Translations under genes and position numbers: made by a program
IMG/VR virus record: IMGVR_UViG_3300010362_000012
Coordinates: 1-64,000 of that record
DNA from: a virus
Taxonomy: Duplodnaviria; Caudoviricetes
Strand: one strand, 5' to 3'
DNA length: 64,000 nt
Notes under the pieces: generated by a model
Told to the model about the DNA's origin: nothing
Databases searched by the model: none
The model's input: the letters and a program-made list of their open reading frames with translations, nothing else
In this document: in pieces, positions 30,619 to 53,436 of the stretch
How the letters are laid out: every line of letters starts with the position of its first letter
How positions within the stretch are numbered: position 1 is the first letter of the stretch

Positions 30619-30992
30619 GGCTGCTGCTCGATCAGTTCGGCATGATCGGCCGTCGTCATGATCAGCAGCATCAGTTCTTCGATCGTGACCGTGTCGCCCT
30701 GGATCACGCGATGGAATTCCTCGACGTAGCCCGACTTGCCGATGTAGTCGAGGATCACCGTCCGCAGCGCGGCGAAGTGCTTCGGCTTGAACTCGCCCAA
30801 CATCTCGGCTGCCAGGATGAGCGGGGCAATCACGCGCGCACTGTCGTCGGTGAAGTGGACGCGCATGTCGTAGCCATCTTCGTCTGACACGCGCTCCAGT
30901 TGAATCGTGTCGCGCAACGTATCGAGCACGCGCCTAATGTGTGCCTCGAGCCGCCGCACGCGCATGTCGCGCATCGCTTCGATTTCGTTCAT
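30615..30992 (-). CDS. Hypothetical protein
   Basis: ATGA overlaps at both ends. Confidence 0.65.
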   Translation of the reverse strand: MNEIEAMRDMRVRRLEAHIRRVLDTLRDTIQLERVSDEDGYDMRVHFTDDSARVIAPLILAAEMLGEFKPKHFAALRTVILDYIGKSGYVEEFHRVIQGDTVTIEELMLLIMTTADHAELIEQQP

Positions 30993-32548
30993 GTGGTCCC
31001 CCAGAAGTCGCCGAGGCTGTAGGCTGCGACCTCCCGCGGCTCGTCGCGCTCGACGGAACGCAGGTATTCAATCTCCGCGCGCGTGCGCTCGTCGAGCTTC
31101 GACAGATCGCGTCCCTCCGGTTTCGGCGCGACGCCCGGCGGTTCCGGCCGCGACATCACGAGATAGCGCAGCGCCTTGGCCGCCTGCACCGGTCCGTCAT
31201 CGTCGAGATCTTCGGGATTCGCCGTCGCCTGCAGGAGCTGCGGCACGGTCCGGATGAGCGTCGAGCAGTCCGGACTCACAATCAGCGCCGGCTGCTCGCC
31301 GGCCGGCGTGATCATCGGCTGGAACCAGTGCTGGAGTCGTTGCCACCCGTTGATCGGATCGTGATCGGACCGGATCACCGGCACGCCGTGCAGGTAGAGC
31401 GTTTCGAACGTGTGCTCGCCGATTTCATCATCGGGAACGGTCTTCAGCGGGTTGCCCCACACCTGGCTCATCGTCAATTTCGATTGCGCGTTGATCAGGC
31501 TGATCGCTTTGGCGACATCGCTCGCGACCGTTTCGTTGAACGTGTGCTCGCGCTCGATGTAGAGCCGCCCGTCGGGCAGGACGACCGCCCAAAGCATGAT
31601 CCCCGGTCGGAAAAAGCCCCAGTGCAGGCCGCAGAGGCGCGGGACGTCGTGCGGCACATCGATGTGCTGCACGCGGTCGTGCCGGACGAAGGTTTTGAAA
31701 TATTGGCGCGGGAACACGTCGCGCCGGCCGAAGCGGAACATCGCGCGCCGCTCCGGTGAGAGCCCGGCCAGGTTTTGCACGTACCGCGGGTCCGCGTATG
31801 GGTTGTCCTCGAGTTTCGCGGCCACGAAGTGGTACTGCGACGGATCCCAGTCCGGAAATTTCGTGCGATCGAACGTTTTGTCGATGAACATCTCCTCGAC
31901 GAACGCCGAAAGCGGACCGCCAGGGTTTTCGCCGGCCAGGACGAGGCCGCGCCAGGTCGATCGCTTCCGCGTGCGGCCCGTCGAGGGCATGATCTCGACA
32001 AATTGGGTCTGTTCGAATTCCTCGAGCTGATCGAAGACGATCAAATCGACGTCGCCGCCGATGTAGGCCTTGTAGGCATCGGGTTCGAAGCAACTCCCCC
32101 ACGTCAGCTCGCTGTCGTTGTCCCAGACGACTGAGTTGGTCATGTACTTCGCGCCGATCTGCTTGGTTTCGCGGATCGCGTAGCGCATGTGATTCAGGCG
32201 CAGCTCCGGCATGGTGCGCCGCAGGAACAACACGCTGAAATTCTCGAATTTGCCGCAGTAGCGATACGCGACCATCCGTAACAGATGCGATTTCGCCGAA
32301 TTCCGATGCCCGCCGATGGCGATCGCCGCGTACTGCTGCGATTCGATCGCGTCGAGGAGCTCGACTTGCTTCGGCAGCGGCAGAAAAAACAGCCGCTTGT
32401 CGGTGGTGAGCTGTTTGTACGCGAGTTGGCGCTCGAAACACTCGTCGGTCGGGCACGCCCAGGCGGCGACGCGGTCCACCGTGCGCTGAATGAATTCGCT
32501 GTCGCAAAAACAGCAGCGAAATTCCGGCACCCAGCCGAGCGTCGTCAT
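30989..32548 (-). CDS. terL: Terminase large subunit with degenerate nuclease active site
   Basis: Walker A GGHRNSAKS, LRRTMPEL, Walker B LIVFDQLEEF, NPGG, LEDNPY, GWQRL, CSTLIR, ALRY; start set at ATG 32548 (ATGA overlap). Confidence 0.9.
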   Translation of the reverse strand: MTTLGWVPEFRCCFCDSEFIQRTVDRVAAWACPTDECFERQLAYKQLTTDKRLFFLPLPKQVELLDAIESQQYAAIAIGGHRNSAKSHLLRMVAYRYCGKFENFSVLFLRRTMPELRLNHMRYAIRETKQIGAKYMTNSVVWDNDSELTWGSCFEPDAYKAYIGGDVDLIVFDQLEEFEQTQFVEIMPSTGRTRKRSTWRGLVLAGENPGGPLSAFVEEMFIDKTFDRTKFPDWDPSQYHFVAAKLEDNPYADPRYVQNLAGLSPERRAMFRFGRRDVFPRQYFKTFVRHDRVQHIDVPHDVPRLCGLHWGFFRPGIMLWAVVLPDGRLYIEREHTFNETVASDVAKAISLINAQSKLTMSQVWGNPLKTVPDDEIGEHTFETLYLHGVPVIRSDHDPINGWQRLQHWFQPMITPAGEQPALIVSPDCSTLIRTVPQLLQATANPEDLDDDGPVQAAKALRYLVMSRPEPPGVAPKPEGRDLSKLDERTRAEIEYLRSVERDEPREVAAYSLGDFWGTT

Positions 32549-32664
32549 GATCGGCTCGTGATCCGCCTGGTGATCAAGACGAAACAGTGTACGCACCAGC
32601 CGTGATGCCACGTCCAACGGTTGCAACGTGGACAGAGAATCTCGTCGCGGTCATTGGCGCTCAT
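32545..32664 (-). CDS. 39-aa zinc-knuckle peptide coupled between nuclease and TerL
   Basis: MSANDRDEILCPRCNRWTWHHGWCVHCF...; ATGA overlaps on both sides. Confidence 0.55.
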   Translation of the reverse strand: MSANDRDEILCPRCNRWTWHHGWCVHCFVLITRRITSRS

Positions 32665-33173
32665 GTTTCGAGGATCGGCATCCCGTACTGCGCTTCGAAG
32701 TGGCGGCGCGATCGTCGATAGAGCTTCGTCTTCACGCCCTTCGTGTCTTCGGTCACGAACGCGACCTCGCCGGCGCGACGATACACGAAATCCGCGATCC
32801 ACTTGCCGACGACGTGCGTGCGGCCATCGACGATCGACACGACGGTGAGATCGTATTCGACCTGGCACTGCAGATCGCTGATCGCCTTCGCCTGCTCGAG
32901 CCGCTTGAGCTCGAGATAGCGCCGGCCTTCCTTCGTCGAGGCGAACCAGAGGCCGACGATCGCGCAGCGCGCGGCGCGTTCTTTCAGCGTGCCCGTGCCG
33001 ATGCGTTGCTGAGCGAATTCTGCGGTGGTGATGTCGGCCGCGGTGAATAGCGTGCCGTCAGGTGTGACGATGCAGGGCTCGGCGCGGTACTTCTGCCGTG
33101 CCTCAGCAGGCCTTTGTTTCGGCGCGGCGAGGCGGGCGAGATCGGTCGGCGTGACGCGTTCCCACCCGCGCAC
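32661..33173 (-). CDS. DUF1064-like PD-(D/E)XK nuclease
   Basis: KYR...FAS.KEGRRY.ELK.LE.A..ISDL, WIADFVY, EDTKGVKT.LY. Confidence 0.8.
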   Translation of the reverse strand: MRGWERVTPTDLARLAAPKQRPAEARQKYRAEPCIVTPDGTLFTAADITTAEFAQQRIGTGTLKERAARCAIVGLWFASTKEGRRYLELKRLEQAKAISDLQCQVEYDLTVVSIVDGRTHVVGKWIADFVYRRAGEVAFVTEDTKGVKTKLYRRSRRHFEAQYGMPILET

Positions 33174-33176
33174 GGA

Positions 33177-33520: not shown

Positions 33521-33715
33521 GAAACGGAGCGGTAACGTGTGCAACTCGCGAGTTTCGGCTAGGTGTTTACGGTCCCGGCTGGTCCCCTCCACTCGCCGCC
33601 GGACCCCCATCGCCGCCTCTCAGGCGGCATCTGCCGCGCACATGGCCCACAGGTGTGGCACGCCTGGCACTTTCCGTATCGGCGGACAGCCTTGTTCGCT
33701 GCACACCGGTCAAGC

Positions 33716-34426
33716 ATGACCGACACTGCTGACCCCCCGCGCCGCGAGCCGCAGTGGGGACGGACGTACCAGTGGGTGATCAAACAATGCCGCGGTAAAC
33801 CCCTCGCCGCCCACCTGTACAGTCATCTCGCGTCCACCTACGGCTATCGCCATCGCACCTTTCATCCCGATCGCCAGCGACTCGCCGCGGAACTGGGCTG
33901 CAAGTCCGTCCGCACGATCGCCCGCGCGCTCGATCATCTGCGCGACATCGACGCCATCCGCACGACCGAACGCCGGCGCGACGGGAAAAATGCCGCGCTC
34001 CTGATCGAGCTCGTCGGGATCGACTACTTTCGGGAGGCTCCCAAGCAGGAGGACTCTACAGTCCCTCTGGCCGAGCAGGGGGACTCTACGATCCCTCTGA
34101 AAGGGCGTTCAGAGGGACTTGAAGTGGGGTTTCAGGGGGACTCTAGAGTCCCCGCACGTAACAGATCGATCTGTACAGATCTAAATACTAAGAACCCCCC
34201 TACCCCCCTTAAAAGGGGGGACCCCCCCGAAACAACCCCCCGCATCACCAGAGACGACCGGAACCGAGCGGCCGAAGTGATGAAACTGCGCTTAGGACGC
34301 TGCCTGGGTCACGACCCGCCCTGCCGGTCACCGGCGGAGTGTCGGGCGAAGTTGGCCGCCGAGTACGCCGTGAATCGCGTCGAGCTCGAACGCGAGAGCT
34401 TGCACGCCGCGATGGGTGTGCGGTGA
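33716..34426 (+). CDS. HTH replication initiator (lambda O / replisome-organiser-like)
   Basis: LYSHLA...FHPDRQRLAAELGCKSVRTIARALDHL; iteron-rich middle region. Confidence 0.7.
   Translation: MTDTADPPRREPQWGRTYQWVIKQCRGKPLAAHLYSHLASTYGYRHRTFHPDRQRLAAELGCKSVRTIARALDHLRDIDAIRTTERRRDGKNAALLIELVGIDYFREAPKQEDSTVPLAEQGDSTIPLKGRSEGLEVGFQGDSRVPARNRSICTDLNTKNPPTPLKRGDPPETTPRITRDDRNRAAEVMKLRLGRCLGHDPPCRSPAECRAKLAAEYAVNRVELERESLHAAMGVR
34044..34195. repeat. Putative replication origin: three iterons plus AT-rich tract inside the initiator gene
   Basis: CAGGRGGACTCTANNNTCCC at 34046, 34076, 34133 (first two with 30-bp period; third contains 18-bp palindrome GGGGACTCTAGAGTCCCC), then AT-rich DNA. Confidence 0.7.
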
Positions 34427-40672: not shown

Positions 40673-41335
40673 TCACGTTCGAAGGGCCAAGACGCGCGCG
40701 TGACAGGCTTCGTCGTCGAGACAGGCGAGAAGCTGCCGGCCGAGGAATTCGGTATAGGCCGGCGGAATGGCTTCGTTCAGTTCCCGATCGGTCATCCAGT
40801 CGATGCCCATGGCGGCGCGCTTGATCGCGCGCGAGCCGTTGCCGCGCACGTTATCGCCGCCATGGCCGGCAACCGTCACGTAGTCGCCGGTTGTCACGCG
40901 CCCGCGGTGTTGCGGATGGCGCGGCTGAAGCAGCAGGACGTTACTTTCGAACATCCGATGTCGGAGCACACGCAACCCGAACATCGCGCCGCAGAGCAGC
41001 ACCTGTCGCGCGAGCGGCGCACCGATCACGTTCTCGATGATGAAGGGCCGCCCGGTGTGCTCGAGCGCCTGGCGTGTCGGCTCGATGAGGTCCGCGCGCT
41101 CGATCTCACGCCAGCGTCGAGCGGACCACGAGTAACGCTGACAGGGCGGGCTGGCATGAATCGCGTCGAACTCGTGCCCATGCCGCGCGACATATGCGAG
41201 CGCGTCATCCTGCACGAATTCGAAGGGGTAGCGTAGCTGCGACTGAATATCGACGCCGACGATGTCGTCGAAGCCGGCGCGATGATAGCCGACGGCAGCG
41301 CCGCCGGCGCCGCAGTAGAGATCAAGCAGTCTCAT
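40673..41335 (-). CDS. C5 cytosine DNA methyltransferase (short orphan type)
   Basis: Motif I LDLYCGAGG, IV ASPPCQ, VI IENV, VIII RHRMFE, X EAIPPAY. Confidence 0.9.
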   Translation of the reverse strand: MRLLDLYCGAGGAAVGYHRAGFDDIVGVDIQSQLRYPFEFVQDDALAYVARHGHEFDAIHASPPCQRYSWSARRWREIERADLIEPTRQALEHTGRPFIIENVIGAPLARQVLLCGAMFGLRVLRHRMFESNVLLLQPRHPQHRGRVTTGDYVTVAGHGGDNVRGNGSRAIKRAAMGIDWMTDRELNEAIPPAYTEFLGRQLLACLDDEACHARVLALRT

Positions 41336-41505
41336 AGTTTCCGTGGTACGAGCTTGGGCGTACACGTGCAATCGCGTCCGAGGTCACAGTCGATCGCGTG
41401 AACCCACATCCGCCGCGGACCGCGCCGGCGCCCCTCACGATGATTGGTCGAGGTCTTCCTGCCCCGTCCAGCATCAACGCCGGCGCGGTCGAGCTTTTTC
41501 TTCAC
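41332..41505 (-). CDS. Small basic Cys/His protein
   Basis: GTGA and ATGA overlaps; HAIDC...CTC. Confidence 0.5.
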   Translation of the reverse strand: MKKKLDRAGVDAGRGRKTSTNHREGRRRGPRRMWVHAIDCDLGRDCTCTPKLVPRKL

Positions 41506-42180: not shown

Positions 42181-42244
42181 ACGAAGAAGCTGGGACCATG
42201 ATATTTTGGAGGCCTCCAAAATATCATGGTCCCAGCTTCTTCGT
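42181..42244. other. Palindrome axis; candidate hairpin telomere read through by sequencing
   Basis: Perfect palindrome with AT-rich core, in non-coding DNA, flanking genes point away from it, no adapter sequence recognisable at the axis. Confidence 0.5.
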
Positions 42245-42554: not shown

Positions 42555-42779
42555 ATGCCGACGCCGCACCAGCAAGCTCGCGCCGTTATCGATCAGATGT
42601 ATCGCGCTATCGGCCAGGCCCGCACGCAGCACGACGTGCTGTCAATCGATGCGGACGGCCTGTTCTTGTGGGCGGCGACGCTCGACGCGTATCTCGAGCT
42701 GATTGCCGATGAGTTACAGCACTACCACGACTTGAAAGCGGCAACGGCAGCGATCGAAACACCCGGCCTGCATCATTGA
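42555..42779 (+). CDS. Hypothetical protein (mirror copy)
   Basis: Mirror of 41646-41870. Confidence 0.65.
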   Translation: MPTPHQQARAVIDQMYRAIGQARTQHDVLSIDADGLFLWAATLDAYLELIADELQHYHDLKAATAAIETPGLHH

Positions 42780-42791
42780 GGTGAGGCTTAC

Positions 42792-42923
42792 ATGCGGAAT
42801 CTGCATCTCGTGCTCTACGTCCTCGCGTTTGTTTTGTTCTTGCTCGCGGCGTGGCCGGTGCCCTCGAGGGTCAATCTCATCGCAGCGGGGCTCGCGTGTC
42901 TCACGCTCACCCTAATCGTGTGA
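42792..42923 (+). CDS. Two-TM membrane protein (mirror copy)
   Basis: Mirror of 41502-41633. Confidence 0.65.
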   Translation: MRNLHLVLYVLAFVLFLLAAWPVPSRVNLIAAGLACLTLTLIV

Positions 42924-43093
42924 AGAAAAAGCTCGACCGCGCCGGCGTTGATGCTGGACGGGGCAGGAAGACCTCGACCAATCATCGTGAGGGGCGCCGG
43001 CGCGGTCCGCGGCGGATGTGGGTTCACGCGATCGACTGTGACCTCGGACGCGATTGCACGTGTACGCCCAAGCTCGTACCACGGAAACTATGA
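42920..43093 (+). CDS. Small basic Cys/His protein (mirror copy)
   Basis: Mirror of 41332-41505. Confidence 0.5.
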   Translation: MKKKLDRAGVDAGRGRKTSTNHREGRRRGPRRMWVHAIDCDLGRDCTCTPKLVPRKL

Positions 43094-43752
43094 GACTGCT
43101 TGATCTCTACTGCGGCGCCGGCGGCGCTGCCGTCGGCTATCATCGCGCCGGCTTCGACGACATCGTCGGCGTCGATATTCAGTCGCAGCTACGCTACCCC
43201 TTCGAATTCGTGCAGGATGACGCGCTCGCATATGTCGCGCGGCATGGGCACGAGTTCGACGCGATTCATGCCAGCCCGCCCTGTCAGCGTTACTCGTGGT
43301 CCGCTCGACGCTGGCGTGAGATCGAGCGCGCGGACCTCATCGAGCCGACACGCCAGGCGCTCGAGCACACCGGGCGGCCCTTCATCATCGAGAACGTGAT
43401 CGGTGCGCCGCTCGCGCGACAGGTGCTGCTCTGCGGCGCGATGTTCGGGTTGCGTGTGCTCCGACATCGGATGTTCGAAAGTAACGTCCTGCTGCTTCAG
43501 CCGCGCCATCCGCAACACCGCGGGCGCGTGACAACCGGCGACTACGTGACGGTTGCCGGCCATGGCGGCGATAACGTGCGCGGCAACGGCTCGCGCGCGA
43601 TCAAGCGCGCCGCCATGGGCATCGACTGGATGACCGATCGGGAACTGAACGAAGCCATTCCGCCGGCCTATACCGAATTCCTCGGCCGGCAGCTTCTCGC
43701 CTGTCTCGACGACGAAGCCTGTCACGCGCGCGTCTTGGCCCTTCGAACGTGA
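43090..43752 (+). CDS. C5 cytosine DNA methyltransferase (mirror copy)
   Basis: Mirror of 40673-41335. Confidence 0.9.
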   Translation: MRLLDLYCGAGGAAVGYHRAGFDDIVGVDIQSQLRYPFEFVQDDALAYVARHGHEFDAIHASPPCQRYSWSARRWREIERADLIEPTRQALEHTGRPFIIENVIGAPLARQVLLCGAMFGLRVLRHRMFESNVLLLQPRHPQHRGRVTTGDYVTVAGHGGDNVRGNGSRAIKRAAMGIDWMTDRELNEAIPPAYTEFLGRQLLACLDDEACHARVLALRT

Positions 43753-43765
43753 AAGCGAGAATGCA

Positions 43766-43984
43766 ATGCCAGCACCATCAAAAGCCTCGCAGCGATTGTT
43801 TCAGGCCGCCAAGGCGGGAGCTGACTTCCCGATGGCGCGCCAAGTACGCGCGAGCATGTCCGACAGCGACTTGGAGGACTTCGCTTCCGGTTCGATGGCC
43901 GGGAAACCCGAACATGTGCGCTCGAGCAAACCGGCAGCGGCGCATTCGCTCCGCAATCTGAAGAAGCGGATCCATGGCAAGTGA
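43766..43984 (+). CDS. DUF3008-like protein (mirror copy)
   Basis: Mirror of 40441-40659. Confidence 0.6.
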   Translation: MPAPSKASQRLFQAAKAGADFPMARQVRASMSDSDLEDFASGSMAGKPEHVRSSKPAAAHSLRNLKKRIHGK

Positions 43985-44168
43985 CTTGAAGGGGTTCGTC
44001 GTCGGTGCCAAAGAACCCCCGCCACCCTGGGACGCTGTCGAGCGCCGCGTCGGCCCAGCCGATCGCCGCTCGAATGGACACGATCGTCGATGGGACGCGT
44101 CCATTGGACGGCGCCGCGGAAGGATGGATCGTCGGAAAAATGCCTCGAATGCGCGCTGGCGACCGTAA
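43974..44168 (+). CDS. (E/D)RR-repeat protein (mirror copy)
   Basis: Mirror of 40257-40451. Confidence 0.55.
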   Translation: MASDLKGFVVGAKEPPPPWDAVERRVGPADRRSNGHDRRWDASIGRRRGRMDRRKNASNARWRP

Positions 44169-44442
44169 GCGTTCCAACAGACAGCGTCGTCGATCCCAAC
44201 ATCGGCTGCGGACGCTCCTCGTCTGTGATGGCGTCCATCAACTGCTCGCGGTTGCCGGCGCGAATGTCAACGTCGCGGTGATTCGACGCTGGTCAGCGCG
44301 GCAGCGCGTCGAAGCGGTCGCGTGGGCGCAGGCCCAAATTGCCGCCTGGGCGAAAGACAAATCGGGTTGGCGGACGTCGGTCTACTGGCCGGAGCACGTC
44401 TCGCAGGCCCATCACCGCATCACGTCATCGGCAGCGGTTTGA
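44140..44442 (+). CDS. Hypothetical basic protein (mirror copy)
   Basis: Mirror of 39983-40285. Confidence 0.4.
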   Translation: MPRMRAGDRKRSNRQRRRSQHRLRTLLVCDGVHQLLAVAGANVNVAVIRRWSARQRVEAVAWAQAQIAAWAKDKSGWRTSVYWPEHVSQAHHRITSSAAV

Positions 44443-44689
44443 TCCGCGCACACTGCATACAAATCTTCGGCACGTCCTGATGCGGTCCCTTCGGGTTGAA
44501 GGCGATCGGCGCCGCGCAGCGATTGCAGATCGTGGTCGCCGCGCCGGCCGGCAGCGAGATATCGTAGTCGGCCACGCGCCGGCAGACGACGTGATCCGGG
44601 CGTCCTGGCGGCGCCGGCTCGAGCGGCCCGCCGCCGTGGCGCACACCGTAGTAGTTGCCCGCGTGAACGTCTGTCGGCCGCTTCTTCAT
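44420..44689 (-). CDS. Zinc-ribbon protein (mirror copy)
   Basis: Mirror of 39736-40005. Confidence 0.6.
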   Translation of the reverse strand: MKKRPTDVHAGNYYGVRHGGGPLEPAPPGRPDHVVCRRVADYDISLPAGAATTICNRCAAPIAFNPKGPHQDVPKICMQCARIKPLPMT

Positions 44690-44910
44690 CCGAGCAACAT
44701 TCCGAGATGCACGTATAGGAATTCGCGTGGCGTCCGATCCGCTCGATCACGATCGCTGTAGTACATGCGCAGGCACACCTTCAGCATCATGGGATCGGTT
44801 GTGTGCATGATGTCGATCAACGCCTTGCGATCCTCTGGTCGCAACGTATCAGATTCGAGCGCGGCGGCGATCTCGTCCACCGCCTGGGCCATCCGTTCAG
44901 GGCGATTCAT
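44686..44910 (-). CDS. Hypothetical protein (mirror copy)
   Basis: Mirror of 39515-39739. Confidence 0.6.
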   Translation of the reverse strand: MNRPERMAQAVDEIAAALESDTLRPEDRKALIDIMHTTDPMMLKVCLRMYYSDRDRADRTPREFLYVHLGMLLG

Positions 44911-45341
44911 GACGGCCACGAGATGCCGCGCGTCCCCTGACGGAGCTCGCGCAGATCGATCAGTACCATGCCGGCGCGCTCGACGTCGATGCCGACTTTC
45001 TCGCGCAGCAGTTTCACGAATATTTCGTCCGATGTCGCGGCCTCGGCGGCCTCGAGCAGCATCAGTCCAACCTCGCGCGCCTTCGCCGGCGGCATCTGCG
45101 ACCGTTGTTCGTTCAGCGTGAATTCCACATAGCCCTTCTGCGTCTTCTGCCCGTAGCTCGAGCTCACCGTGATGGAATCCACCTCGGGTTCTTCATCTGT
45201 CGTGACCTCGACCTCGCGGATGTTACGTGCCGCCAGGACCGCTTCAGCCTGCTGCCGGAAGGCCTCAATCACGCGATTCGGCGCGCTCGTCACCTTGAGC
45301 ATCGCCACGACTTCGTCGAGAATGAGCAGCGGCTTCGCCAT
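44907..45341 (-). CDS. Hypothetical protein (mirror copy)
   Basis: Mirror of 39084-39518. Confidence 0.7.
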   Translation of the reverse strand: MAKPLLILDEVVAMLKVTSAPNRVIEAFRQQAEAVLAARNIREVEVTTDEEPEVDSITVSSSYGQKTQKGYVEFTLNEQRSQMPPAKAREVGLMLLEAAEAATSDEIFVKLLREKVGIDVERAGMVLIDLRELRQGTRGISWPS

Positions 45342-45797
45342 TTACGGTGTCCCCGCCGGCAGGAGGCGTGACACGTCGAACGTGCCGGCCTGGATGCGGG
45401 GCACCAAAATCTCGCCGACCGTCTGGTTCGACCCCGGCACGACGATGAACGCCATGAATTCCTCTTCGAAGATCGAGATGCCGGCCTCGACCGCCTCGAG
45501 CTTCGCACGGACGATGAGATAGAGCGCCCGCCAGCGCTGCCGTTCCGCCTGGTCGATCGCGTCGTCGATTTGCCGCGGCGTCCGCGTGCGGCCCGCCGGC
45601 GAGCGCGCGTGATCTTTCCGAGCGGGCCGCGGCAGCACGAATCGGATCTGTTTGCCCTTCCAGCCGAATTCGATGATGTCCCTCGTCGAGTCCCACCCGG
45701 TGTGATACTGCTCGGCACCATGCTGCCGCAGCAGGCCTTCGATCTCGCGTTTGCTCTTATCGACGTTGACCGTCGTCGTGCTCGCGTAGCGGCTCAT
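45342..45797 (-). CDS. Conserved hypothetical phage protein (mirror copy)
   Basis: Mirror of 38628-39083. Confidence 0.75.
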   Translation of the reverse strand: MSRYASTTTVNVDKSKREIEGLLRQHGAEQYHTGWDSTRDIIEFGWKGKQIRFVLPRPARKDHARSPAGRTRTPRQIDDAIDQAERQRWRALYLIVRAKLEAVEAGISIFEEEFMAFIVVPGSNQTVGEILVPRIQAGTFDVSRLLPAGTP

Positions 45798-46018
45798 TGA
45801 CGGCCGAGCGACTGATAGAACGCCAGGTTGTCGGCACGCTCGGCCGCGGACGTTGCCCAACGCACGTTGCCCGGCCCGAACCAGCGTTGCGTGCGGTCAA
45901 GCATCGTCAACCAACTCAGGGCGTCCCAGTCGGCGTCGGTCAACGGTTCGTCCGCGGCGAACTTCCTCATCGCCACCCAGGTCTGTCGCATCGCATGTTG
46001 GTCAGCCGATTCGGGCAT
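45794..46018 (-). CDS. Hypothetical protein (mirror copy)
   Basis: Mirror of 38407-38631. Confidence 0.6.
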   Translation of the reverse strand: MPESADQHAMRQTWVAMRKFAADEPLTDADWDALSWLTMLDRTQRWFGPGNVRWATSAAERADNLAFYQSLGRQ

Positions 46019-46029
46019 CGTCGGTCACC

Positions 46030-46284
46030 TCATCTCTCTGCGCGCTGTGCTTTCCAGTAGGCGCGCATCCGTTTCGATATCGCCTTACGCGCGGCGGCCG
46101 ACATGCGGCGGGGCCGCTGCTTCTTCGGCGTGGCGACCTTGGCCGCGGCGGCGTGGCCGTTCGGCGCGACACTCGCACGGGCTGATTCCAGAATACCGAG
46201 CGCGGTTCGCAGCTTGTCGAGCTCGTCCTGGCGCACTTCAATCTCGGCATTGAGCGCCGCCACCGACGGGTTCACCTCACTCAT
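46030..46284 (-). CDS. Nucleoid-like basic protein (mirror copy)
   Basis: Mirror of 38141-38395. Confidence 0.7.
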   Translation of the reverse strand: MSEVNPSVAALNAEIEVRQDELDKLRTALGILESARASVAPNGHAAAAKVATPKKQRPRRMSAAARKAISKRMRAYWKAQRAER

Positions 46285-46454
46285 GTATTCGCTCCTTCTT
46301 TGTCATCACGCGCCCGCCGCACGATGTCGGCAAGCTGCAGCCGCAAATAATCCGACGGCGTGCGCTGCGCTTTGCGCGCCAGTCGGAACAGGTCATCACG
46401 CAAGCGGCGCGGGCCGCGCACGGAAATCGTCACCGTCGATCGAGATTTCGCCAT
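46281..46454 (-). CDS. RHH regulator (mirror copy)
   Basis: Mirror of 37971-38144. Confidence 0.7.
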   Translation of the reverse strand: MAKSRSTVTISVRGPRRLRDDLFRLARKAQRTPSDYLRLQLADIVRRARDDKEGANT

Positions 46455-46579
46455 GAGGCTGACTAGTGTAGACAACTGTCTACACGGTTGACAAGTGTTA
46501 CGGGATCTGCCCTACTACGCCTCTGCGGGTGCTTTCCAGTGGCTGCCCAGCCCACCGCCCGCGTCAGAAGGAGTCCGAC

Positions 46580-47005
46580 ATGGACTCAGTCACAGTCGAG
46601 GTATTGGCGGCTCTCGGCCTCTATCCACGTGGAACAGTTTCACGTTCCACATTTCAGCGGCGCAGGCCGCGACGGGTGAAGACGGGTATCTCTCCGCTCT
46701 GTTCGAAGTGCGGCGAGGACAACGATCGTCCTGGGCAGCGGTACTGTCGCGCCTGCCACAACGAATATGCCCGCGCGACGCGACCGAAGCACTCCGAGTT
46801 GGATCCCGAAGCTCGGCGCCGTGCGAATTGCCGTCGTCTGACAAATTCTCATCTCGCTCGCGGGAAGCTCGAGCGCCGGCCGTGCGCGTGCGGCTCGATG
46901 GACGAACTGCAGGTTCGCCAACTTGGTGATTACAGCGACCCGTTCGACGTCGAGTTCATTTGCAAGACGTGTCGAACGGGCGTACGCCATGTCGCCGCAG
47001 CTTGA
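46580..47005 (+). CDS. Degenerate HNH-like protein (mirror copy)
   Basis: Mirror of 37420-37845. Confidence 0.6.
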   Translation: MDSVTVEVLAALGLYPRGTVSRSTFQRRRPRRVKTGISPLCSKCGEDNDRPGQRYCRACHNEYARATRPKHSELDPEARRRANCRRLTNSHLARGKLERRPCACGSMDELQVRQLGDYSDPFDVEFICKTCRTGVRHVAAA

Positions 47006-47107
47006 TGGGTGTTCCGGCAGGAACGTGATACAGTAGAGCGAGGCAACTGACGTGATGAGACGTCAGCCGCCTCTAACCACGAACCGGCACATAGGAGGTG
47101 CCGACAG

Positions 47108-47476
47108 ATGGCTGACCCTAAGCATACTCGCGTCTTCGTTTCTTTCACGTTGGCGGCTGCACTCGTCCTCAGTGCGTGCGGCGGATCGTCTCCGACAGCA
47201 CCTACAACCCCCCCCGTGCCAGCCACTCCTGCGTGCCAAGCGAATAACACCGCGGAGATCACATTTCGCAACGGCACCAATCTGACGTTGAATGTCCAGT
47301 GGGACGGTTCTCTCGTCAGCACACTCGGACCCAGTCAGCAGTCGCAGTCGATGACGGTTGCGGCTGGTGTGCAGCACCGCGACGCGTTCATCGTCGCGAA
47401 TACAGGCTTGACGTTCTGCGCGGGCACGCCAGTCCTGGCGCAGTGCTCTTCGATCGTCATCACCTGCACACCGTAG
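47108..47476 (+). CDS. Lipoprotein (mirror copy)
   Basis: Mirror of 36949-37317. Confidence 0.8.
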   Translation: MADPKHTRVFVSFTLAAALVLSACGGSSPTAPTTPPVPATPACQANNTAEITFRNGTNLTLNVQWDGSLVSTLGPSQQSQSMTVAAGVQHRDAFIVANTGLTFCAGTPVLAQCSSIVITCTP

Positions 47477-47478
47477 TC

Positions 47479-48657
47479 TCACGATGTCGATGGTTGCCAG
47501 CAACCTTGCACGGTAACGCCCAGGCCGATCGAGTCCTGACTGCAGCGTTGGACGGCTTCGTCGCTGCAGGCGTCGCGCGTGTATTCGTACGGGACCGTTT
47601 CCCAGAGACAGAGCACCGGACGGCCACGGCGGCGACTCGCGTCGTGGAACCAGTCCGGTGCGCTGATCGACGGCGCAGTCGCGTTCGGATGCGTCAGGTT
47701 GCTGCTATCGATGAAGCCCTGCGCGAGCGGCATCGGCGTGCCGGGCGGCAGGAAGCGGTCGCAGATCTCGATCCAGCGATCCCACCAGCGCGGCTTGCCG
47801 TGCGCGTCGAGGCCCGGTCCCCCACTGACGTAGGCGGGGCCGTTGTTGCCGTGATCGGTCTGATAGAGCAAGCCGTCGATCTCCACGCCAGCGCTCTTGT
47901 AGTACGCGCCCTGTTCGTCGCCTTCGTACGGATCCTCGACCTCGAGCCAGGCGCCTTCGTCGGGATTCTGATCGCTTTGCTTCCAATAGAGCTCGGTCGG
48001 GTTCCAGTCGGGCGTGGTTGGCTTGTTCGGTTTGTAGCTGCCCCAGTAGCCGGCCGGCGTGCAGCGCGTCGGCTGCAGCCAGAGCGCGAGCAGCCCGTCG
48101 TCGCCGACGTGTGATCGCATCAGCTTCAGCGCGTCGTCCATGTTCTTGCAGTTGTACGCGCCGCCCCGATCGAGATTCTGCTCGTAGCCGGCGCAGTACC
48201 ACGCATCCTTCGCCAGGTGCGCGACGGCGTCGAGGGTCCGCGCCATCTGCCCGTTGTAAATTTCCTGATGGGTGCCTCCGTCCGCGGTGCCGACGAGAAT
48301 GATCGGCGTGAAGCCCTCCGCGACGATGTAGTCACAGAGTGCGCCGTAGTCGGCGAGATTGGTGCGGAAATCGTAGGTCGCGCCCGCCATGTAGCCGGGA
48401 TAGCCGCCCTGCACGGCGAGCTGGATGGCATTCACGCCGAGTGATCGCTTAACCTCGAGGCAGCGATCGAGTCGCGTGAAATCGCGGCTCTGCCACCACA
48501 CGCCGAAGTAAATCGGATCGAACACGACCTCGTCTTCATCATCGCGATGACTGCAGTAGCTCGCCAGAAAATTGCGCCGGTCGCGCGGTGGCCGCGGGAC
48601 TGTCATGGCCGCGCTGTTGATCACGAGGGCCGTCTCTACGCGCGTGAGCGTTCGCAT
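47479..48657 (-). CDS. Glycoside hydrolase-like protein (mirror copy)
   Basis: Mirror of 35768-36946. Confidence 0.5.
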   Translation of the reverse strand: MRTLTRVETALVINSAAMTVPRPPRDRRNFLASYCSHRDDEDEVVFDPIYFGVWWQSRDFTRLDRCLEVKRSLGVNAIQLAVQGGYPGYMAGATYDFRTNLADYGALCDYIVAEGFTPIILVGTADGGTHQEIYNGQMARTLDAVAHLAKDAWYCAGYEQNLDRGGAYNCKNMDDALKLMRSHVGDDGLLALWLQPTRCTPAGYWGSYKPNKPTTPDWNPTELYWKQSDQNPDEGAWLEVEDPYEGDEQGAYYKSAGVEIDGLLYQTDHGNNGPAYVSGGPGLDAHGKPRWWDRWIEICDRFLPPGTPMPLAQGFIDSSNLTHPNATAPSISAPDWFHDASRRRGRPVLCLWETVPYEYTRDACSDEAVQRCSQDSIGLGVTVQGCWQPSTS

Positions 48658-48661
48658 CGCT

Positions 48662-48922
48662 TCACCCTTTCGGCTTGTCGTGATCTCTCGGCACGGCGAT
48701 GACCTTCGTCGCGGCGGAAATCAAGGGTTGCAGTTGCTCGGCCATCGCGCGTTCTGTCGCGCCGGCGAAAATCATGATCGCGAGATTTTCCGGAAATCCC
48801 GCGTGGACATCTGAGCGCACGTGAATCGGTTTTCCGTCGCGGAGCCGCTTCAGGTTCTCGTACGACAGTCCGAGCACGATGATCTGTTTACCATCGTCGC
48901 CAGTCGCAAGGGCCGTGATCAT
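48662..48922 (-). CDS. Hypothetical protein (mirror copy)
   Basis: Mirror of 35503-35763. Confidence 0.65.
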   Translation of the reverse strand: MITALATGDDGKQIIVLGLSYENLKRLRDGKPIHVRSDVHAGFPENLAIMIFAGATERAMAEQLQPLISAATKVIAVPRDHDKPKG

Positions 48923-49266
48923 ACGTTCGGCCAGTCGGTGGCGAGCGGAATCAGAAAGGCCTTGCCGCCGACGATCGGGCGGTAGACGAGCCAGTTGCCG
49001 CTCGGTTTCGCGAGCTCGTACGCGCCGTTCGCGCCCGATTCGCGCGCTTGCAGCGTGCCATCGGGTTGCACACTGAGCACGTCGCCGACTTCGGCCGGCG
49101 ATCCGTCGCCGCGCCTGATCGTGGGATCATCGTCGATCGTCACCGTGACGTAGCCGTCGAACTGCTCGACGCATTTGTCTTTCGCGACCGCCTCGATCGC
49201 GCGCGGCGCGGCCTCGGCTGCCGTGGTCGCGTCATCGGTCGGTTTCGGAGCGGCGTGCTTCGTCAT
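48919..49266 (-). CDS. Hypothetical protein (mirror copy)
   Basis: Mirror of 35159-35506. Confidence 0.65.
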   Translation of the reverse strand: MTKHAAPKPTDDATTAAEAAPRAIEAVAKDKCVEQFDGYVTVTIDDDPTIRRGDGSPAEVGDVLSVQPDGTLQARESGANGAYELAKPSGNWLVYRPIVGGKAFLIPLATDWPNV

Positions 49267-49562
49267 GCGGCACTTCCTCTGGCTTCGCGGGCCGCTTGCG
49301 CGGCGCGCCGTTTGTTGTCGTCCCACACGTCGCGGCGTGGCGCGTCCAGCACCATCCGCTTCCAGTCATCGCGATCGGCCGACACGCGGGTGAGTTCCTC
49401 GTCATGGTGCTGGTTCAGCATGTCGATCACTTCGCGATGTTGCCAGCCGAAGATCCACCACTTTTTCCAGCCGCCGATCAGGATCGCGATGAGGATGCCC
49501 AGCAGGCCCGTCTCGTGCAGCACTTGCCACGCATCGCGGACGGGTCGTTCGGACAGTTGCAT
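49263..49562 (-). CDS. Holin-like protein (mirror copy)
   Basis: Mirror of 34863-35162. Confidence 0.5.
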   Translation of the reverse strand: MQLSERPVRDAWQVLHETGLLGILIAILIGGWKKWWIFGWQHREVIDMLNQHHDEELTRVSADRDDWKRMVLDAPRRDVWDDNKRRAAQAAREARGSAA

Positions 49563-49592
49563 CACCGCCCCGGCTGATCGTACCGCGCATTG

Positions 49593-49742
49593 TCAATGCA
49601 CGTCGCGGTCGCACATTTCCGCCACACGCTTGCGCGTCATGAGCACGCGGAGCTCCGAGTCGCGACTCCCCCGCCGCGCGCGCCACCAGACGACGAGCCC
49701 GATCACGATCGCGCTGTTGAACATCCAGAGGGCGATGGTCAT
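49593..49742 (-). CDS. Single-TM protein (mirror copy)
   Basis: Mirror of 34683-34832. Confidence 0.55.
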   Translation of the reverse strand: MTIALWMFNSAIVIGLVVWWRARRGSRDSELRVLMTRKRVAEMCDRDVH

Positions 49743-50002
49743 GTGTCTTCTCCGTATCGGCCGCGCCGGCCGGCGCTGACGGCCCCGACCGGAAAAGGGG
49801 CTGGACTGAAGGGCGCGATCGGATCCGGGAGCGGCGGCAGATCATCCGGAACCGCCGCGTCCGCGCAGACGGGACAACGCACGAGCGCGCGCGTGACCTG
49901 GTGCATCCGGATCTCGACCATCGCGTCCCCGCGCCGGATCTTGGCGCGGCATCGGCCGCAGAAGCGATTGCGGGTTGCCCGGACCCACTGGCGCGTCGTC
50001 AC
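49739..50002 (-). CDS. Zinc-finger protein (mirror copy)
   Basis: Mirror of 34423-34686. Confidence 0.6.
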   Translation of the reverse strand: MTTRQWVRATRNRFCGRCRAKIRRGDAMVEIRMHQVTRALVRCPVCADAAVPDDLPPLPDPIAPFSPAPFPVGAVSAGRRGRYGEDT

Positions 50003-50709
50003 CGCACACCCATCGCGGCGTGCAAGCTCTCGCGTTCGAGCTCGACGCGATTCACGGCGTACTCGGCGGCCAACTTCGCCCGACACTCCGCCGGTGACCG
50101 GCAGGGCGGGTCGTGACCCAGGCAGCGTCCTAAGCGCAGTTTCATCACTTCGGCCGCTCGGTTCCGGTCGTCTCTGGTGATGCGGGGGGTTGTTTCGGGG
50201 GGGTCCCCCCTTTTAAGGGGGGTAGGGGGGTTCTTAGTATTTAGATCTGTACAGATCGATCTGTTACGTGCGGGGACTCTAGAGTCCCCCTGAAACCCCA
50301 CTTCAAGTCCCTCTGAACGCCCTTTCAGAGGGATCGTAGAGTCCCCCTGCTCGGCCAGAGGGACTGTAGAGTCCTCCTGCTTGGGAGCCTCCCGAAAGTA
50401 GTCGATCCCGACGAGCTCGATCAGGAGCGCGGCATTTTTCCCGTCGCGCCGGCGTTCGGTCGTGCGGATGGCGTCGATGTCGCGCAGATGATCGAGCGCG
50501 CGGGCGATCGTGCGGACGGACTTGCAGCCCAGTTCCGCGGCGAGTCGCTGGCGATCGGGATGAAAGGTGCGATGGCGATAGCCGTAGGTGGACGCGAGAT
50601 GACTGTACAGGTGGGCGGCGAGGGGTTTACCGCGGCATTGTTTGATCACCCACTGGTACGTCCGTCCCCACTGCGGCTCGCGGCGCGGGGGGTCAGCAGT
50701 GTCGGTCAT
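49999..50709 (-). CDS. HTH replication initiator (mirror copy)
   Basis: Mirror of 33716-34426. Confidence 0.7.
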   Translation of the reverse strand: MTDTADPPRREPQWGRTYQWVIKQCRGKPLAAHLYSHLASTYGYRHRTFHPDRQRLAAELGCKSVRTIARALDHLRDIDAIRTTERRRDGKNAALLIELVGIDYFREAPKQEDSTVPLAEQGDSTIPLKGRSEGLEVGFQGDSRVPARNRSICTDLNTKNPPTPLKRGDPPETTPRITRDDRNRAAEVMKLRLGRCLGHDPPCRSPAECRAKLAAEYAVNRVELERESLHAAMGVR

Positions 50710-51053
50710 GCTTGACCGGTGTGCAGCGAACAAGGCTGTCCGCCGATACGGAAAGTGCCAGGCGTGCCACACCTGTGGGCCATGTGCGCGGCAGATGCCG
50801 CCTGAGAGGCGGCGATGGGGGTCCGGCGGCGAGTGGAGGGGACCAGCCGGGACCGTAAACACCTAGCCGAAACTCGCGAGTTGCACACGTTACCGCTCCG
50901 TTTCATGGAAAGAAACTGGGTTATTTACCAGTTATTTTTCGGCTGACACAACCCCTTGGGGCGAAGACATTGGCGGGCACAATACCACAATCCTGACTCA
51001 ATGTCAGATTGTCCGGTACTGTTGTTAATTCGTGTTATAGAATCTGACTCACT

Positions 51054-51248
51054 ATGGCGCGTAACACCTCGCGTAAGACCCTCTACCTCCGACTGGAAGC
51101 CGAACTGCTCGACAAGGTCGATGCGTTGGCTGCCGAAGGCGACCGTTCGCGAACAGCTCAGGTTAGGCGGATGTTGCTACGCGAACTGAAGCGGTTGACT
51201 CGGACGCCAGAGACGCCATCGCCGGCTGAAGGCGCGAGCGCAGCGTGA
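51054..51248 (+). CDS. RHH regulator (mirror copy)
   Basis: Mirror of 33177-33371. Confidence 0.8.
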   Translation: MARNTSRKTLYLRLEAELLDKVDALAAEGDRSRTAQVRRMLLRELKRLTRTPETPSPAEGASAA

Positions 51249-51251
51249 TCC

Positions 51252-51764
51252 GTGCGCGGGTGGGAACGCGTCACGCCGACCGATCTCGCCCGCCTCGCCG
51301 CGCCGAAACAAAGGCCTGCTGAGGCACGGCAGAAGTACCGCGCCGAGCCCTGCATCGTCACACCTGACGGCACGCTATTCACCGCGGCCGACATCACCAC
51401 CGCAGAATTCGCTCAGCAACGCATCGGCACGGGCACGCTGAAAGAACGCGCCGCGCGCTGCGCGATCGTCGGCCTCTGGTTCGCCTCGACGAAGGAAGGC
51501 CGGCGCTATCTCGAGCTCAAGCGGCTCGAGCAGGCGAAGGCGATCAGCGATCTGCAGTGCCAGGTCGAATACGATCTCACCGTCGTGTCGATCGTCGATG
51601 GCCGCACGCACGTCGTCGGCAAGTGGATCGCGGATTTCGTGTATCGTCGCGCCGGCGAGGTCGCGTTCGTGACCGAAGACACGAAGGGCGTGAAGACGAA
51701 GCTCTATCGACGATCGCGCCGCCACTTCGAAGCGCAGTACGGGATGCCGATCCTCGAAACATGA
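51252..51764 (+). CDS. DUF1064-like nuclease (mirror copy)
   Basis: Mirror of 32661-33173. Confidence 0.8.
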   Translation: MRGWERVTPTDLARLAAPKQRPAEARQKYRAEPCIVTPDGTLFTAADITTAEFAQQRIGTGTLKERAARCAIVGLWFASTKEGRRYLELKRLEQAKAISDLQCQVEYDLTVVSIVDGRTHVVGKWIADFVYRRAGEVAFVTEDTKGVKTKLYRRSRRHFEAQYGMPILET

Positions 51765-51880
51765 GCGCCAATGACCGCGACGAGATTCTCTGTCCACGTT
51801 GCAACCGTTGGACGTGGCATCACGGCTGGTGCGTACACTGTTTCGTCTTGATCACCAGGCGGATCACGAGCCGATCATGA
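51761..51880 (+). CDS. Zinc-knuckle peptide (mirror copy)
   Basis: Mirror of 32545-32664. Confidence 0.55.
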   Translation: MSANDRDEILCPRCNRWTWHHGWCVHCFVLITRRITSRS

Positions 51881-53436
51881 CGACGCTCGGCTGGGTGCCG
51901 GAATTTCGCTGCTGTTTTTGCGACAGCGAATTCATTCAGCGCACGGTGGACCGCGTCGCCGCCTGGGCGTGCCCGACCGACGAGTGTTTCGAGCGCCAAC
52001 TCGCGTACAAACAGCTCACCACCGACAAGCGGCTGTTTTTTCTGCCGCTGCCGAAGCAAGTCGAGCTCCTCGACGCGATCGAATCGCAGCAGTACGCGGC
52101 GATCGCCATCGGCGGGCATCGGAATTCGGCGAAATCGCATCTGTTACGGATGGTCGCGTATCGCTACTGCGGCAAATTCGAGAATTTCAGCGTGTTGTTC
52201 CTGCGGCGCACCATGCCGGAGCTGCGCCTGAATCACATGCGCTACGCGATCCGCGAAACCAAGCAGATCGGCGCGAAGTACATGACCAACTCAGTCGTCT
52301 GGGACAACGACAGCGAGCTGACGTGGGGGAGTTGCTTCGAACCCGATGCCTACAAGGCCTACATCGGCGGCGACGTCGATTTGATCGTCTTCGATCAGCT
52401 CGAGGAATTCGAACAGACCCAATTTGTCGAGATCATGCCCTCGACGGGCCGCACGCGGAAGCGATCGACCTGGCGCGGCCTCGTCCTGGCCGGCGAAAAC
52501 CCTGGCGGTCCGCTTTCGGCGTTCGTCGAGGAGATGTTCATCGACAAAACGTTCGATCGCACGAAATTTCCGGACTGGGATCCGTCGCAGTACCACTTCG
52601 TGGCCGCGAAACTCGAGGACAACCCATACGCGGACCCGCGGTACGTGCAAAACCTGGCCGGGCTCTCACCGGAGCGGCGCGCGATGTTCCGCTTCGGCCG
52701 GCGCGACGTGTTCCCGCGCCAATATTTCAAAACCTTCGTCCGGCACGACCGCGTGCAGCACATCGATGTGCCGCACGACGTCCCGCGCCTCTGCGGCCTG
52801 CACTGGGGCTTTTTCCGACCGGGGATCATGCTTTGGGCGGTCGTCCTGCCCGACGGGCGGCTCTACATCGAGCGCGAGCACACGTTCAACGAAACGGTCG
52901 CGAGCGATGTCGCCAAAGCGATCAGCCTGATCAACGCGCAATCGAAATTGACGATGAGCCAGGTGTGGGGCAACCCGCTGAAGACCGTTCCCGATGATGA
53001 AATCGGCGAGCACACGTTCGAAACGCTCTACCTGCACGGCGTGCCGGTGATCCGGTCCGATCACGATCCGATCAACGGGTGGCAACGACTCCAGCACTGG
53101 TTCCAGCCGATGATCACGCCGGCCGGCGAGCAGCCGGCGCTGATTGTGAGTCCGGACTGCTCGACGCTCATCCGGACCGTGCCGCAGCTCCTGCAGGCGA
53201 CGGCGAATCCCGAAGATCTCGACGATGACGGACCGGTGCAGGCGGCCAAGGCGCTGCGCTATCTCGTGATGTCGCGGCCGGAACCGCCGGGCGTCGCGCC
53301 GAAACCGGAGGGACGCGATCTGTCGAAGCTCGACGAGCGCACGCGCGCGGAGATTGAATACCTGCGTTCCGTCGAGCGCGACGAGCCGCGGGAGGTCGCA
53401 GCCTACAGCCTCGGCGACTTCTGGGGGACCACATGA
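51877..53436 (+). CDS. terL: Terminase large subunit (mirror copy)
   Basis: Mirror of 30989-32548. Confidence 0.9.
   Translation: MTTLGWVPEFRCCFCDSEFIQRTVDRVAAWACPTDECFERQLAYKQLTTDKRLFFLPLPKQVELLDAIESQQYAAIAIGGHRNSAKSHLLRMVAYRYCGKFENFSVLFLRRTMPELRLNHMRYAIRETKQIGAKYMTNSVVWDNDSELTWGSCFEPDAYKAYIGGDVDLIVFDQLEEFEQTQFVEIMPSTGRTRKRSTWRGLVLAGENPGGPLSAFVEEMFIDKTFDRTKFPDWDPSQYHFVAAKLEDNPYADPRYVQNLAGLSPERRAMFRFGRRDVFPRQYFKTFVRHDRVQHIDVPHDVPRLCGLHWGFFRPGIMLWAVVLPDGRLYIEREHTFNETVASDVAKAISLINAQSKLTMSQVWGNPLKTVPDDEIGEHTFETLYLHGVPVIRSDHDPINGWQRLQHWFQPMITPAGEQPALIVSPDCSTLIRTVPQLLQATANPEDLDDDGPVQAAKALRYLVMSRPEPPGVAPKPEGRDLSKLDERTRAEIEYLRSVERDEPREVAAYSLGDFWGTT

Follow-up and report, generated by a model that had tools for sequence, protein, structure and literature searches.

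A conserved genome tip and a large terminase with a substituted nuclease site in uncultured soil tailed phages, with closed hairpin ends as a possible explanation

Introduction

To our knowledge, every characterised phage that uses a terminase cuts its DNA with the nuclease of the large terminase subunit (TerL), sometimes with the help of an HNH protein, and we know of nuclease-free packaging motors only in protein-primed phi29-like phages. The present work concerns a 64,000-nucleotide (nt) stretch of DNA of a tailed virus, positions 1 to 64,000 of the IMG/VR record IMGVR_UViG_3300010362_000012, the whole of which is called the window below. It carries a TerL gene with a substituted nuclease site and a palindrome axis at 42212/42213. 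An earlier reading of the sequence alone had proposed that this phage, described there as a podophage, may keep closed hairpin ends and package unit-length genomes with a TerL that only translocates DNA, no protelomerase being visible.

The phages N15, PY54 and phiKO2 (PMC7969092) have linear double-stranded DNA, in which the origin is internal and of plasmid type and the telomere junctions are palindromic; they encode a protelomerase and partition genes, carry hairpins only in the prophage, and their cos site is cut by an active terminase. Poxviruses and the rudivirus SIRV2 have linear double-stranded DNA with closed ends and head-to-head intermediates (PMC5062984, PMC3157427, PMC6962361), which are resolved by a structure-specific nuclease, a Holliday-junction resolvase, and not by a protelomerase; their inverted terminal repeats (ITRs) are on the kilobase scale, and they have no such terminase–portal packaging. 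The phi29-type ATPase (gp16; gp11 of phi28, PDB 7jqp) is a motor that translocates unit-length linear DNA without a working nuclease, in phages that have a protein-primed family-B polymerase, a terminal protein and packaging RNA (pRNA). The best solved relative of the TerL studied here is that of phage D6E (PDB 5oe8, PMC5727402), with a profile E of 2e-11 and a fold E of 6e-14.

Layout of the Record

The IMG/VR contig behind the window is 84,424 bp long, i.e., 2 x 42,212 bp, and the comparison of the full record with its own reverse complement gave 0 mismatches. Within the window, the arms 20425–42212 and 42213–64000 show 100% complementarity with a spacer of 0 nt, and the end class of the record in IMG/VR is 'inverted terminal repeats'. 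The spacer-less palindrome that had been noticed in non-coding DNA is real and larger than was claimed, as the whole record is self-complementary. The comparison of the 42,212-bp unit with itself revealed neither direct terminal repeats (DTRs) nor ITRs.

It is known that SPAdes and MEGAHIT output whole palindromic unitigs where the assembly graph has an inverted loop, while other assemblers cut them precisely at the midpoint (Rahman and Medvedev 2022, PMC9528984). Such palindromic unitigs explain why the record is self-complementary and exactly twice the unit, and their halving by some assemblers accounts for the other assemblies that end right at the axis. The 84-kb molecule is an assembly product, and the window is one copy and a mirror copy of an incomplete, approximately 42-kb genome of a soil tailed phage. 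The phage belongs to a large uncultured group of soil tailed phages, and nine long contigs of its clade were analysed (G000, G001, G003, G004, G006, G007, G010, G011 and G025).

The homologues of the first gene of the unit (45–662) are located 4.4–8.9 kb inward of the left tips of relatives; therefore, the full genome is probably 46–50 kb long, and the unit is missing roughly 4–9 kb on the left. The assumption that 42 kb represent the complete genome found no support, nor did the podophage label.

The CheckV completeness of five near-complete contigs of 45–50 kb (G003, G004, G006, G007 and G001) was only 39–56%, and that of the doubled 84-kb record was 73%. Doubled palindromic contigs may be distorting the genome length that CheckV expects for the clade. 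Catalogues may therefore mis-size the clade; IMG/VR also lists the doubled contig as a genome with ITRs.

The Genome Tip

The axis lies inside approximately 0.6–0.8 kb of non-coding DNA. The relative G001 (49,793 bp), which comes from a different sample and whose TerL is 75–76% identical, is collinear with the unit and non-palindromic. Its contig starts no more than 1 nt away from the position that corresponds to the axis, and its first bases, AGCCTGTAAATATCATGG, match CCTCCAAAATATCATGG at the tip of the unit.

The alignment of six contig ends, the right ends of the unit and G001 and the left ends of G003, G004, G006 and G007, showed an invariant GTCAA box. It starts 31 nt from the tip at the right end of the unit, 32 nt at the right end of G001, and 30 and 31 nt at the left ends of G007 and G006, respectively; at the left tip of G003 it starts at nt 30, counted after 5 mirrored nt, and at the left end of G004, whose contig is about 10 nt short, at nt 20. 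Thus, five contig ends of five relatives (unit included) carry the box 30–32 nt from the tip. Such boxes occur at right ends and at left ends, in inverted orientation to each other. Three more contigs have the box 8, 11 and 53 nt from the contig end, the last of them (L110) without a clear mirror. The contigs G023 and G027 end 20–22 nt before the homologous tip point, G004 about 10 nt and L105 about 200 nt before it. The box was never seen at both ends of one genome, no exact ITR was present in any relative, and the tips have in common only the box approximately 30 nt inward. The contig ends of L009, L140 and L142 showed neither the box nor a fold-back, and they may not be true tips. The search of IMG/VR with the terminal motifs returned only contigs that were already known.

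In eight long clade contigs TerL is located 7–13 kb from the same contig end, so these contigs are not randomly permuted. Judged from these comparisons of contig ends, the axis is a fixed, conserved physical genome end and not an arbitrary dead end.

Short fold-backs were found at the tips of three relatives. The left end of G003 reads TGAAG/CTTCACC..., and G007 starts with CTTCACC..., which means that G003 extends 5 nt beyond the tip as a mirror. The contig Ga0268265_10000384 (L120/L141, 47,346 bp) starts with CGGACTAA-GT-TTAGTCCG, an 8-nt stem with a 2-nt loop, and the start of its sister contig G006 corresponds to the centre of this terminal hairpin. At the start of G011 (43,653 bp, CheckV 100%) there is an 18-nt loop on a 10-nt stem, with GTCAAG approximately 33 nt from the loop centre, and a 9-mer GGGTWATCC is present about 8–11 nt from both of its tips. 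Of the 19 ends of long contigs in the clade, 2 had a stem of at least 8 nt at contig position 1; no such stem was present at the 138 fragment-contig ends, and the frequency at internal positions was 0.29%. Asymmetric hairpin centres such as those of L120 and G011 cannot arise from the joining of two identical open ends, and no inverted graph loop is possible there.

Several side observations were made in the terminal regions. In the outward direction, the GTCAA box reads TTGACG, with GATATT 16 nt further on (42178–42207, + strand), which resembles a sigma-70 promoter pointing off the tip with a predicted start site at about the last base; this arrangement is also present in G001. On a replicated head-to-head junction, such a promoter would transcribe into the other arm; the promoter-like sequence may also be a coincidence, or the box may be a protein-binding site. 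Between 41940 and 42000, the terminal non-coding DNA contains an inverted repeat, ATTGGACTG...CAGTCCAAT, and repeated GGTCCAAT words, which are kept in L105 (a relative with an 85% identical TerL) and may form an operator or a protein-binding array. The left arm of G001, which the unit is without, has five dispersed direct repeats of 92–109 bp, 94–100% identical and 500–800 bp apart (G001 47017–49482; L007 7017–9482), which may be repeated early promoters or regulatory sites. Within its last 200 nt, the G025 contig (L169) runs into a tandem array with a unit of about 30 nt (CGTCGCCGGCCCTGGGGCAGCTCCCGGCCG...), which is probably where the assembly broke.

Sequencing Support at the Axis

Two public soil runs contained the sequence, X1 (the probable source) and X2, and the analysis used their Logan contigs, not the raw reads. 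In X1, a 2,473-nt Logan contig with a depth of 8.7 ends at 42109, and a separate 228-nt Logan contig (k = 31) with a depth of 2.2 is a perfect palindrome consisting of 42099–42212 and its mirror (42099–42326). As this independent k = 31 assembly of X1 crosses the axis as a palindrome, the junction is present in the reads and is not the invention of one assembler; inverted graph loops likewise require a read that truly contains the palindrome (PMC9528984). At least one read turns round exactly at the right tip, which led the assembler up to this point and then back along the opposite strand. The k-mer depth in X1 drops four-fold, from 8.7 to 2.2, over the last 114 nt, which fits ends that are unable to take adapters and fits a tagmentation library too. 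In agreement with the sequence-only reading, none of the listed Logan contigs of X1 leaves the axis into non-mirrored DNA.

The Large Terminase

The TerL open reading frame (ORF) encodes 545 aa and matched no Pfam model; its true start is likely near 32548 (M27), and its N-terminus is a four-cysteine zinc ribbon. The Walker A motif is GGHRNSAKS, in which K112 is present in every sequence covering the column. The Walker B motif is VFDQLEEF (D199-Q200), in which Q replaces the catalytic Glu and E202 is invariant in the clade.

The search for homologues gave 95 TerLs at E ≤ 0.001, and the alignment was built from the window TerL and 175 homologues. The aligned sequences split into two clean classes, a canonical one and the window clade of approximately 60 clusters. 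Canonical TerLs have the Walker B motif [DE]E and the nuclease motifs DWGY, xDP and DH..DALRY, with D, D/S/P and D/E at positions 335, 392 and 484 of the window protein. In the window clade, the Walker B motif is [DE]Q-x-E, position 335 is H (rarely R, Q or F), position 392 is N (rarely Q, S or T), positions 480–481 vary, and position 484 is K or else N, R, Q or H; in the window TerL, V480-Q481 stands in place of D-H. The claim that every expected nuclease carboxylate is substituted was borne out by this alignment and by D6E for H335, N392 and K484, to which Q200 is added. The TerL of G010 is interrupted, and its class was assigned from Walker B only. In that record (IMGVR_UViG_3300046535_000845, 17700–19711) the clade TerL is found in three matching pieces, which may reflect an intein, an insertion or a frameshift.

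In the T4, SPP1, P22 and G20c terminases, three acidic residues bind the catalytic metals. The family profile aligns the three nuclease motifs of the window TerL with CDYG, VDPS and NDHQLDADRY of the D6E TerL, and the order of the ATPase and RNase H-like domains is the same. D6E keeps D, D and D-H..D at these sites, whereas the window protein has H, N and V-Q..K, as well as the N-terminal zinc ribbon. In the AlphaFold model, with a predicted local distance difference test score (pLDDT) of 74, H335 is placed at the end of the first strand and N392 at the end of a later strand of the C-terminal domain, while K484 is in its last long helix. Foldseek matched the model to the full-length TerLs of D6E, HK97, T4 and Sf6 and also to phi28 gp11; for nuclease domains, the target-normalised TM-scores were 0.67 for P22 (4dkw), 0.62 for SPP1 (2wc9) and 0.60 for G20c (5m1f). 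The RNase H-like nuclease fold is retained, and the three metal-binding acidic residues are absent.

The remainder of the nuclease domain is strongly conserved inside the window clade; therefore, it appears to be kept for a function other than metal-dependent cutting. From its sequence, the clade TerL would be unable to cut DNA. The presence of a second, intact TerL was also checked, and no second TerL gene was found in the record, which again favours the sequence-only reading. The window protein would resemble the phi29-type motor in translocating unit-length DNA without a working nuclease, but unlike that motor it is a full-length classical TerL, similar to those of D6E, Sf6 and T4, in which the nuclease domain is kept and its catalytic residues are substituted.

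Two IMG/VR contigs, L067 and L073, encode a TerL with the DQxE Walker B motif and an intact D/D/DH..D nuclease site. As the two features are paired there, the Walker B variant probably supports a functional ATPase in which the glutamate has shifted, and these TerLs are possible evolutionary intermediates between the two classes.

Genome Ends in the Clade

None of the nine long contigs of the nuclease-dead clade is classed in IMG/VR as DTR, circular or provirus, compared with 8 of 13 canonical relatives (five DTR and three proviruses; Fisher p ~0.004 by hand calculation). This comparison, together with the tip shared by several nuclease-dead relatives, three of them with fold-backs, agrees with the sequence-only reading. 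A junction of one tip to the other tip was found neither in the nine long contigs nor in the listed Logan contigs. No clade TerL was found in 185,579 species genomes, which gave no host or prophage lead.

The Nuclease Gene Upstream of TerL and Gene Absences

The gene directly upstream of TerL, in the usual place of the small terminase subunit (TerS), encodes a DUF1064 nuclease. The DUF1064 family has been placed in the PD-(D/E)XK superfamily, near TnsA and T7 endonuclease I (PMC1189080). The motif of the window protein is intact (D128...E-D-x-K145), and D128 and K145 are invariant in the alignment. Its model (pLDDT 84.5) gave weak Foldseek matches (E ≥ 0.013), nearly all of them PD-(D/E)XK nucleases, including Hjc, RecU and TnsA, and the sequence search of the PDB gave no match. 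The gene is present in 8 of the 13 clade genomes checked (the unit, G001, G003, G004, G007, G023, G024 and G026). L140 and L141, two lineages with TerLs of 47–48%, are without DUF1064 and have a HerA/DUF87-type ATPase in the early arm; L140 also has a gene for the beta clamp of DNA polymerase III.

Six-frame searches of five genomes (G000, G001, G003, G004 and G006) at E ≤ 1 gave no match to ResT/TelK (PF16684), Phage_integrase (PF00589) or DNA_pol_B_2 (PF03175); the last is a difference from the phi29 phages. The Pfam and PHROG scans of nearly all ORFs >100 aa revealed no TerS, transposase or HNH nuclease, and their matches included no partition system, although ParAB was not searched for directly. 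At this sensitivity, and with roughly 4–9 kb missing on the left of the unit, the reported absence of TerS and of a tyrosine recombinase or protelomerase held. No large non-structural gene is conserved across the relatives. A 392-aa early protein (35768–36946, + strand) was considered as a hidden protelomerase and rejected, as it had no family match and no homologue in five relatives.

Possible Explanations

We consider closed hairpin ends combined with packaging without cutting to be the best reading of these results and give it about an even chance of being right. It explains most simply the fixed tip, the symmetric tip architecture and the fold-back reads, and it also accounts for the asymmetric hairpins of relatives, for the substituted nuclease site of TerL and for the fact that no circular assemblies were seen. 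The most economical view is that the ends of the clade genomes are covalently closed hairpins, or head-to-head replicated dimers in infected cells. Replication would initiate at the internal iteron origin and, by passing round the hairpins, would yield palindromic junctions, which would be resolved without a protelomerase. The likeliest resolving enzyme would be the PD-(D/E)XK nuclease encoded just upstream of TerL, acting together with host ligase on extruded junctions in the manner of poxviruses and rudiviruses, and TerL, still able to translocate but no longer to cut, would package the unit-length products. The inferred parts of this scheme are the closed ends, the hairpin form of virion DNA, a TerL unable to cut and the identity of the enzyme that resolves the junctions. 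In the proposal made from the sequence alone, hairpin ends with a translocase-only TerL, the parts that stood are the tip, the TerL loss and the end classes, while the 84-kb palindrome proved to be a doubling, the axis depth is thin and the closed ends stay conditional.

The broader claim, that a widespread uncultured soil clade has closed hairpins throughout its life cycle, resolves them without a protelomerase and packages its DNA with a TerL converted to His/Asn/Lys, is tentative, and we regard it as somewhat more likely to be wrong than right. A large TerL clade without the catalytic triad, with fixed tips and without circular assemblies, points to another route by which unit-length genomes are produced and loaded. 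Hairpin ends, if that is what they are, would be a new end type for tailed phages together with a protelomerase-independent telomere resolution in bacteria; if true, this genome-end and packaging type would fall outside those recognised for terminase-using phages. The likeness to poxviruses and rudiviruses would include the closed ends, the head-to-head intermediates and a stand-alone nuclease gene. The differences are that the tips here have only a short box approximately 30 nt inward, in place of kilobase-scale ITRs, and that the candidate resolvase, in place of their Holliday-junction resolvases, is the PD-(D/E)XK nuclease DUF1064, which is not universal in the clade.

Several points weigh against closed ends and packaging without cutting. 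The support at the axis comes from contigs, not raw reads, and from the probable source run only; X2, which is from a second study, contains 76% of the words, has no contig past 41986 and does not cover the tip. The depth of about 2.2 is thin and might come from a single read, because each canonical k-mer of a perfect palindrome is counted twice in a read that crosses it. Assemblers are known to produce palindromes that span a whole contig (PMC9528984), the mirrored extensions of relatives are short (5–10 nt) with lengths that deviate from a simple (k-1)/2 rule, and most contigs of relatives merely stop at or before the tip, which open ends explain too. The left tip of the window genome is missing from the record, and both ends of a genome need not match, as the GTCAA box is not found at the right tip of G006. 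The G006/L141 and L140 lineages and G011 are without DUF1064, which is also present in a few canonical relatives; therefore, it is not a universal resolvase. Furthermore, we know of no tailed phage that packages hairpin-ended DNA, and the literature searched described no terminase-using phage whose virion DNA ends in hairpins.

The strongest rival, which we hold to be possible but distinctly on the unlikely side, is that the genomes have fixed open ends, either blunt, with short cohesive and possibly self-complementary overhangs, or protein-blocked. A separate nuclease (DUF1064, an unrecognised enzyme or a host enzyme) would cut concatemers between inverted GTCAA boxes, at a site with two-fold symmetry, and TerL would only translocate; the fold-backs would arise when identical tips are joined end to end, or they would be artefacts of the library or the assembly at a dead end. 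Fixed tips with inverted boxes at right and left ends, an intact PD-(D/E)XK nuclease in the TerS position and a TerL without its nuclease residues are all what such a phage would have. The centre of the junction of the unit, AGG/CCT, is itself palindromic, the axis depth is only about 2, and the 'Linear' classes of IMG/VR fit cos-type ends too. However, the joining of identical ends yields perfect palindromes only, whereas the centres of L120 and G011 are asymmetric (2 and 18 nt), and DUF1064 is not present throughout the clade. Open ends would normally be sequenced at full depth to the last base, in contrast to the four-fold drop, and no tip-to-other-tip junction was among the long contigs or the listed Logan contigs.

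It is improbable that the axis is a pure artefact over ordinary biology, i.e., a chance chimeric read at a coverage dead end in a phage whose TerL cuts via other residues or a helper and whose genome is permuted or terminally redundant. Single inverted loops do give whole-contig palindromes in SPAdes and MEGAHIT (PMC9528984), and the depth at the axis is low. Unlike those palindromic unitigs, the loop here does not sit at a random dead end but marks a genome tip that is conserved: independent contigs from other samples end no more than 1 nt from the axis, which also has the conserved distance of 30–32 nt from GTCAA. The location of TerL 7–13 kb from the same end in eight long contigs, and the DTR counts (none in the 9 long contigs of the clade, 5 among the 13 canonical relatives), also disagree with permuted or terminally redundant genomes.

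An N15-like phage-plasmid, with hairpins made only in the intracellular linear-plasmid prophage by a protelomerase too divergent to be recognised and with a differently permuted virion genome cut by terminase, is very improbable: the internal iteron-type initiator, the palindromic junction or hairpin signal and the many early genes without a detectable family would suit it, but in contrast to the N15 group the five genomes searched gave no ResT/TelK or tyrosine-recombinase match, the family matches held no partition genes (with the limit on ParAB given above), no large early gene is conserved across relatives, TerL has lost the residues needed for cos cutting, no lysogens were found among the species genomes, and every long contig breaks at the tips, with no second, cos-type permutation among them.

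Other Genes and Features

The features of the window are collected in Table 1. The 'His-less HNH' protein of the sequence-only reading probably refers to the four-cysteine zinc-ribbon protein, for which there was no Pfam or PHROG match even at E ≤ 1, so that the HNH assignment was not upheld. The lambda-type initiator with iterons was upheld in part: three 20-nt direct repeats and inverted copies of them are present inside the initiator gene (34041–34152), while the family matches of the initiator itself are weak. An initiator with internal iterons fits a lambda-O-like arrangement, as far as its sequence can tell.

Table 1. Coordinates of the features identified in the window, with strand and the evidence for each.
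Feature	Position	Strand	Evidence or remark
Unique phage unit	1..42212	+	right end, true tip; left end, truncated contig end
Major capsid protein	24674..25999	-	phrog_14242 E 6e-13; 64-91% identical in relatives
Portal protein	27349..29769	-	phrog_156 E 2e-4; weak P22_portal match; kept in all relatives
Zinc-ribbon protein, 157 aa, 4-Cys	30145..30618	-	CPRC...CLAC; no family match
TerL	30989..32626	-	phrog_979 E 5e-18 (ATPase part only); D6E profile match; Foldseek
TerL K484	31175-31177	-	nuclease-site position
TerL N392	31451-31453	-	nuclease-site position
TerL H335	31622-31624	-	nuclease-site position
DUF1064 PD-(D/E)XK nuclease	32661..33173	-	PF06356 46.9 bits; phrog_190
Putative replication initiator (helix-turn-helix, HTH)	33563..34426	+	HTH_36 23.1 bits (below cut-off); phrog_270 E 3e-7
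C5 cytosine DNA methyltransferase	40673..41371	-	phrog_363 E 4e-39; PF00145; last clear gene before tip
Two 20-nt direct repeats GGGCGCCAAGCGGCTAAGCG	42045..42097	+	terminal non-coding region
Conserved GTCAA box	42178..42182	-	31-35 nt inward of tip; alignment of six tips
Tip-proximal motif AAATATCATGG	42196..42206	-	common to unit and G001
Fold-back axis, physical right genome tip	42212..42213	.	G001 contig start; Logan palindromic contig
Mirror copy of 20425-42212	42213..64000	-	assembly doubling; zero independent information

No tRNA genes were found, and many early genes have no detectable family. The left arms of the relatives contain only small ORFs, the largest of which encodes a 386-aa DUF3560 protein in G001.

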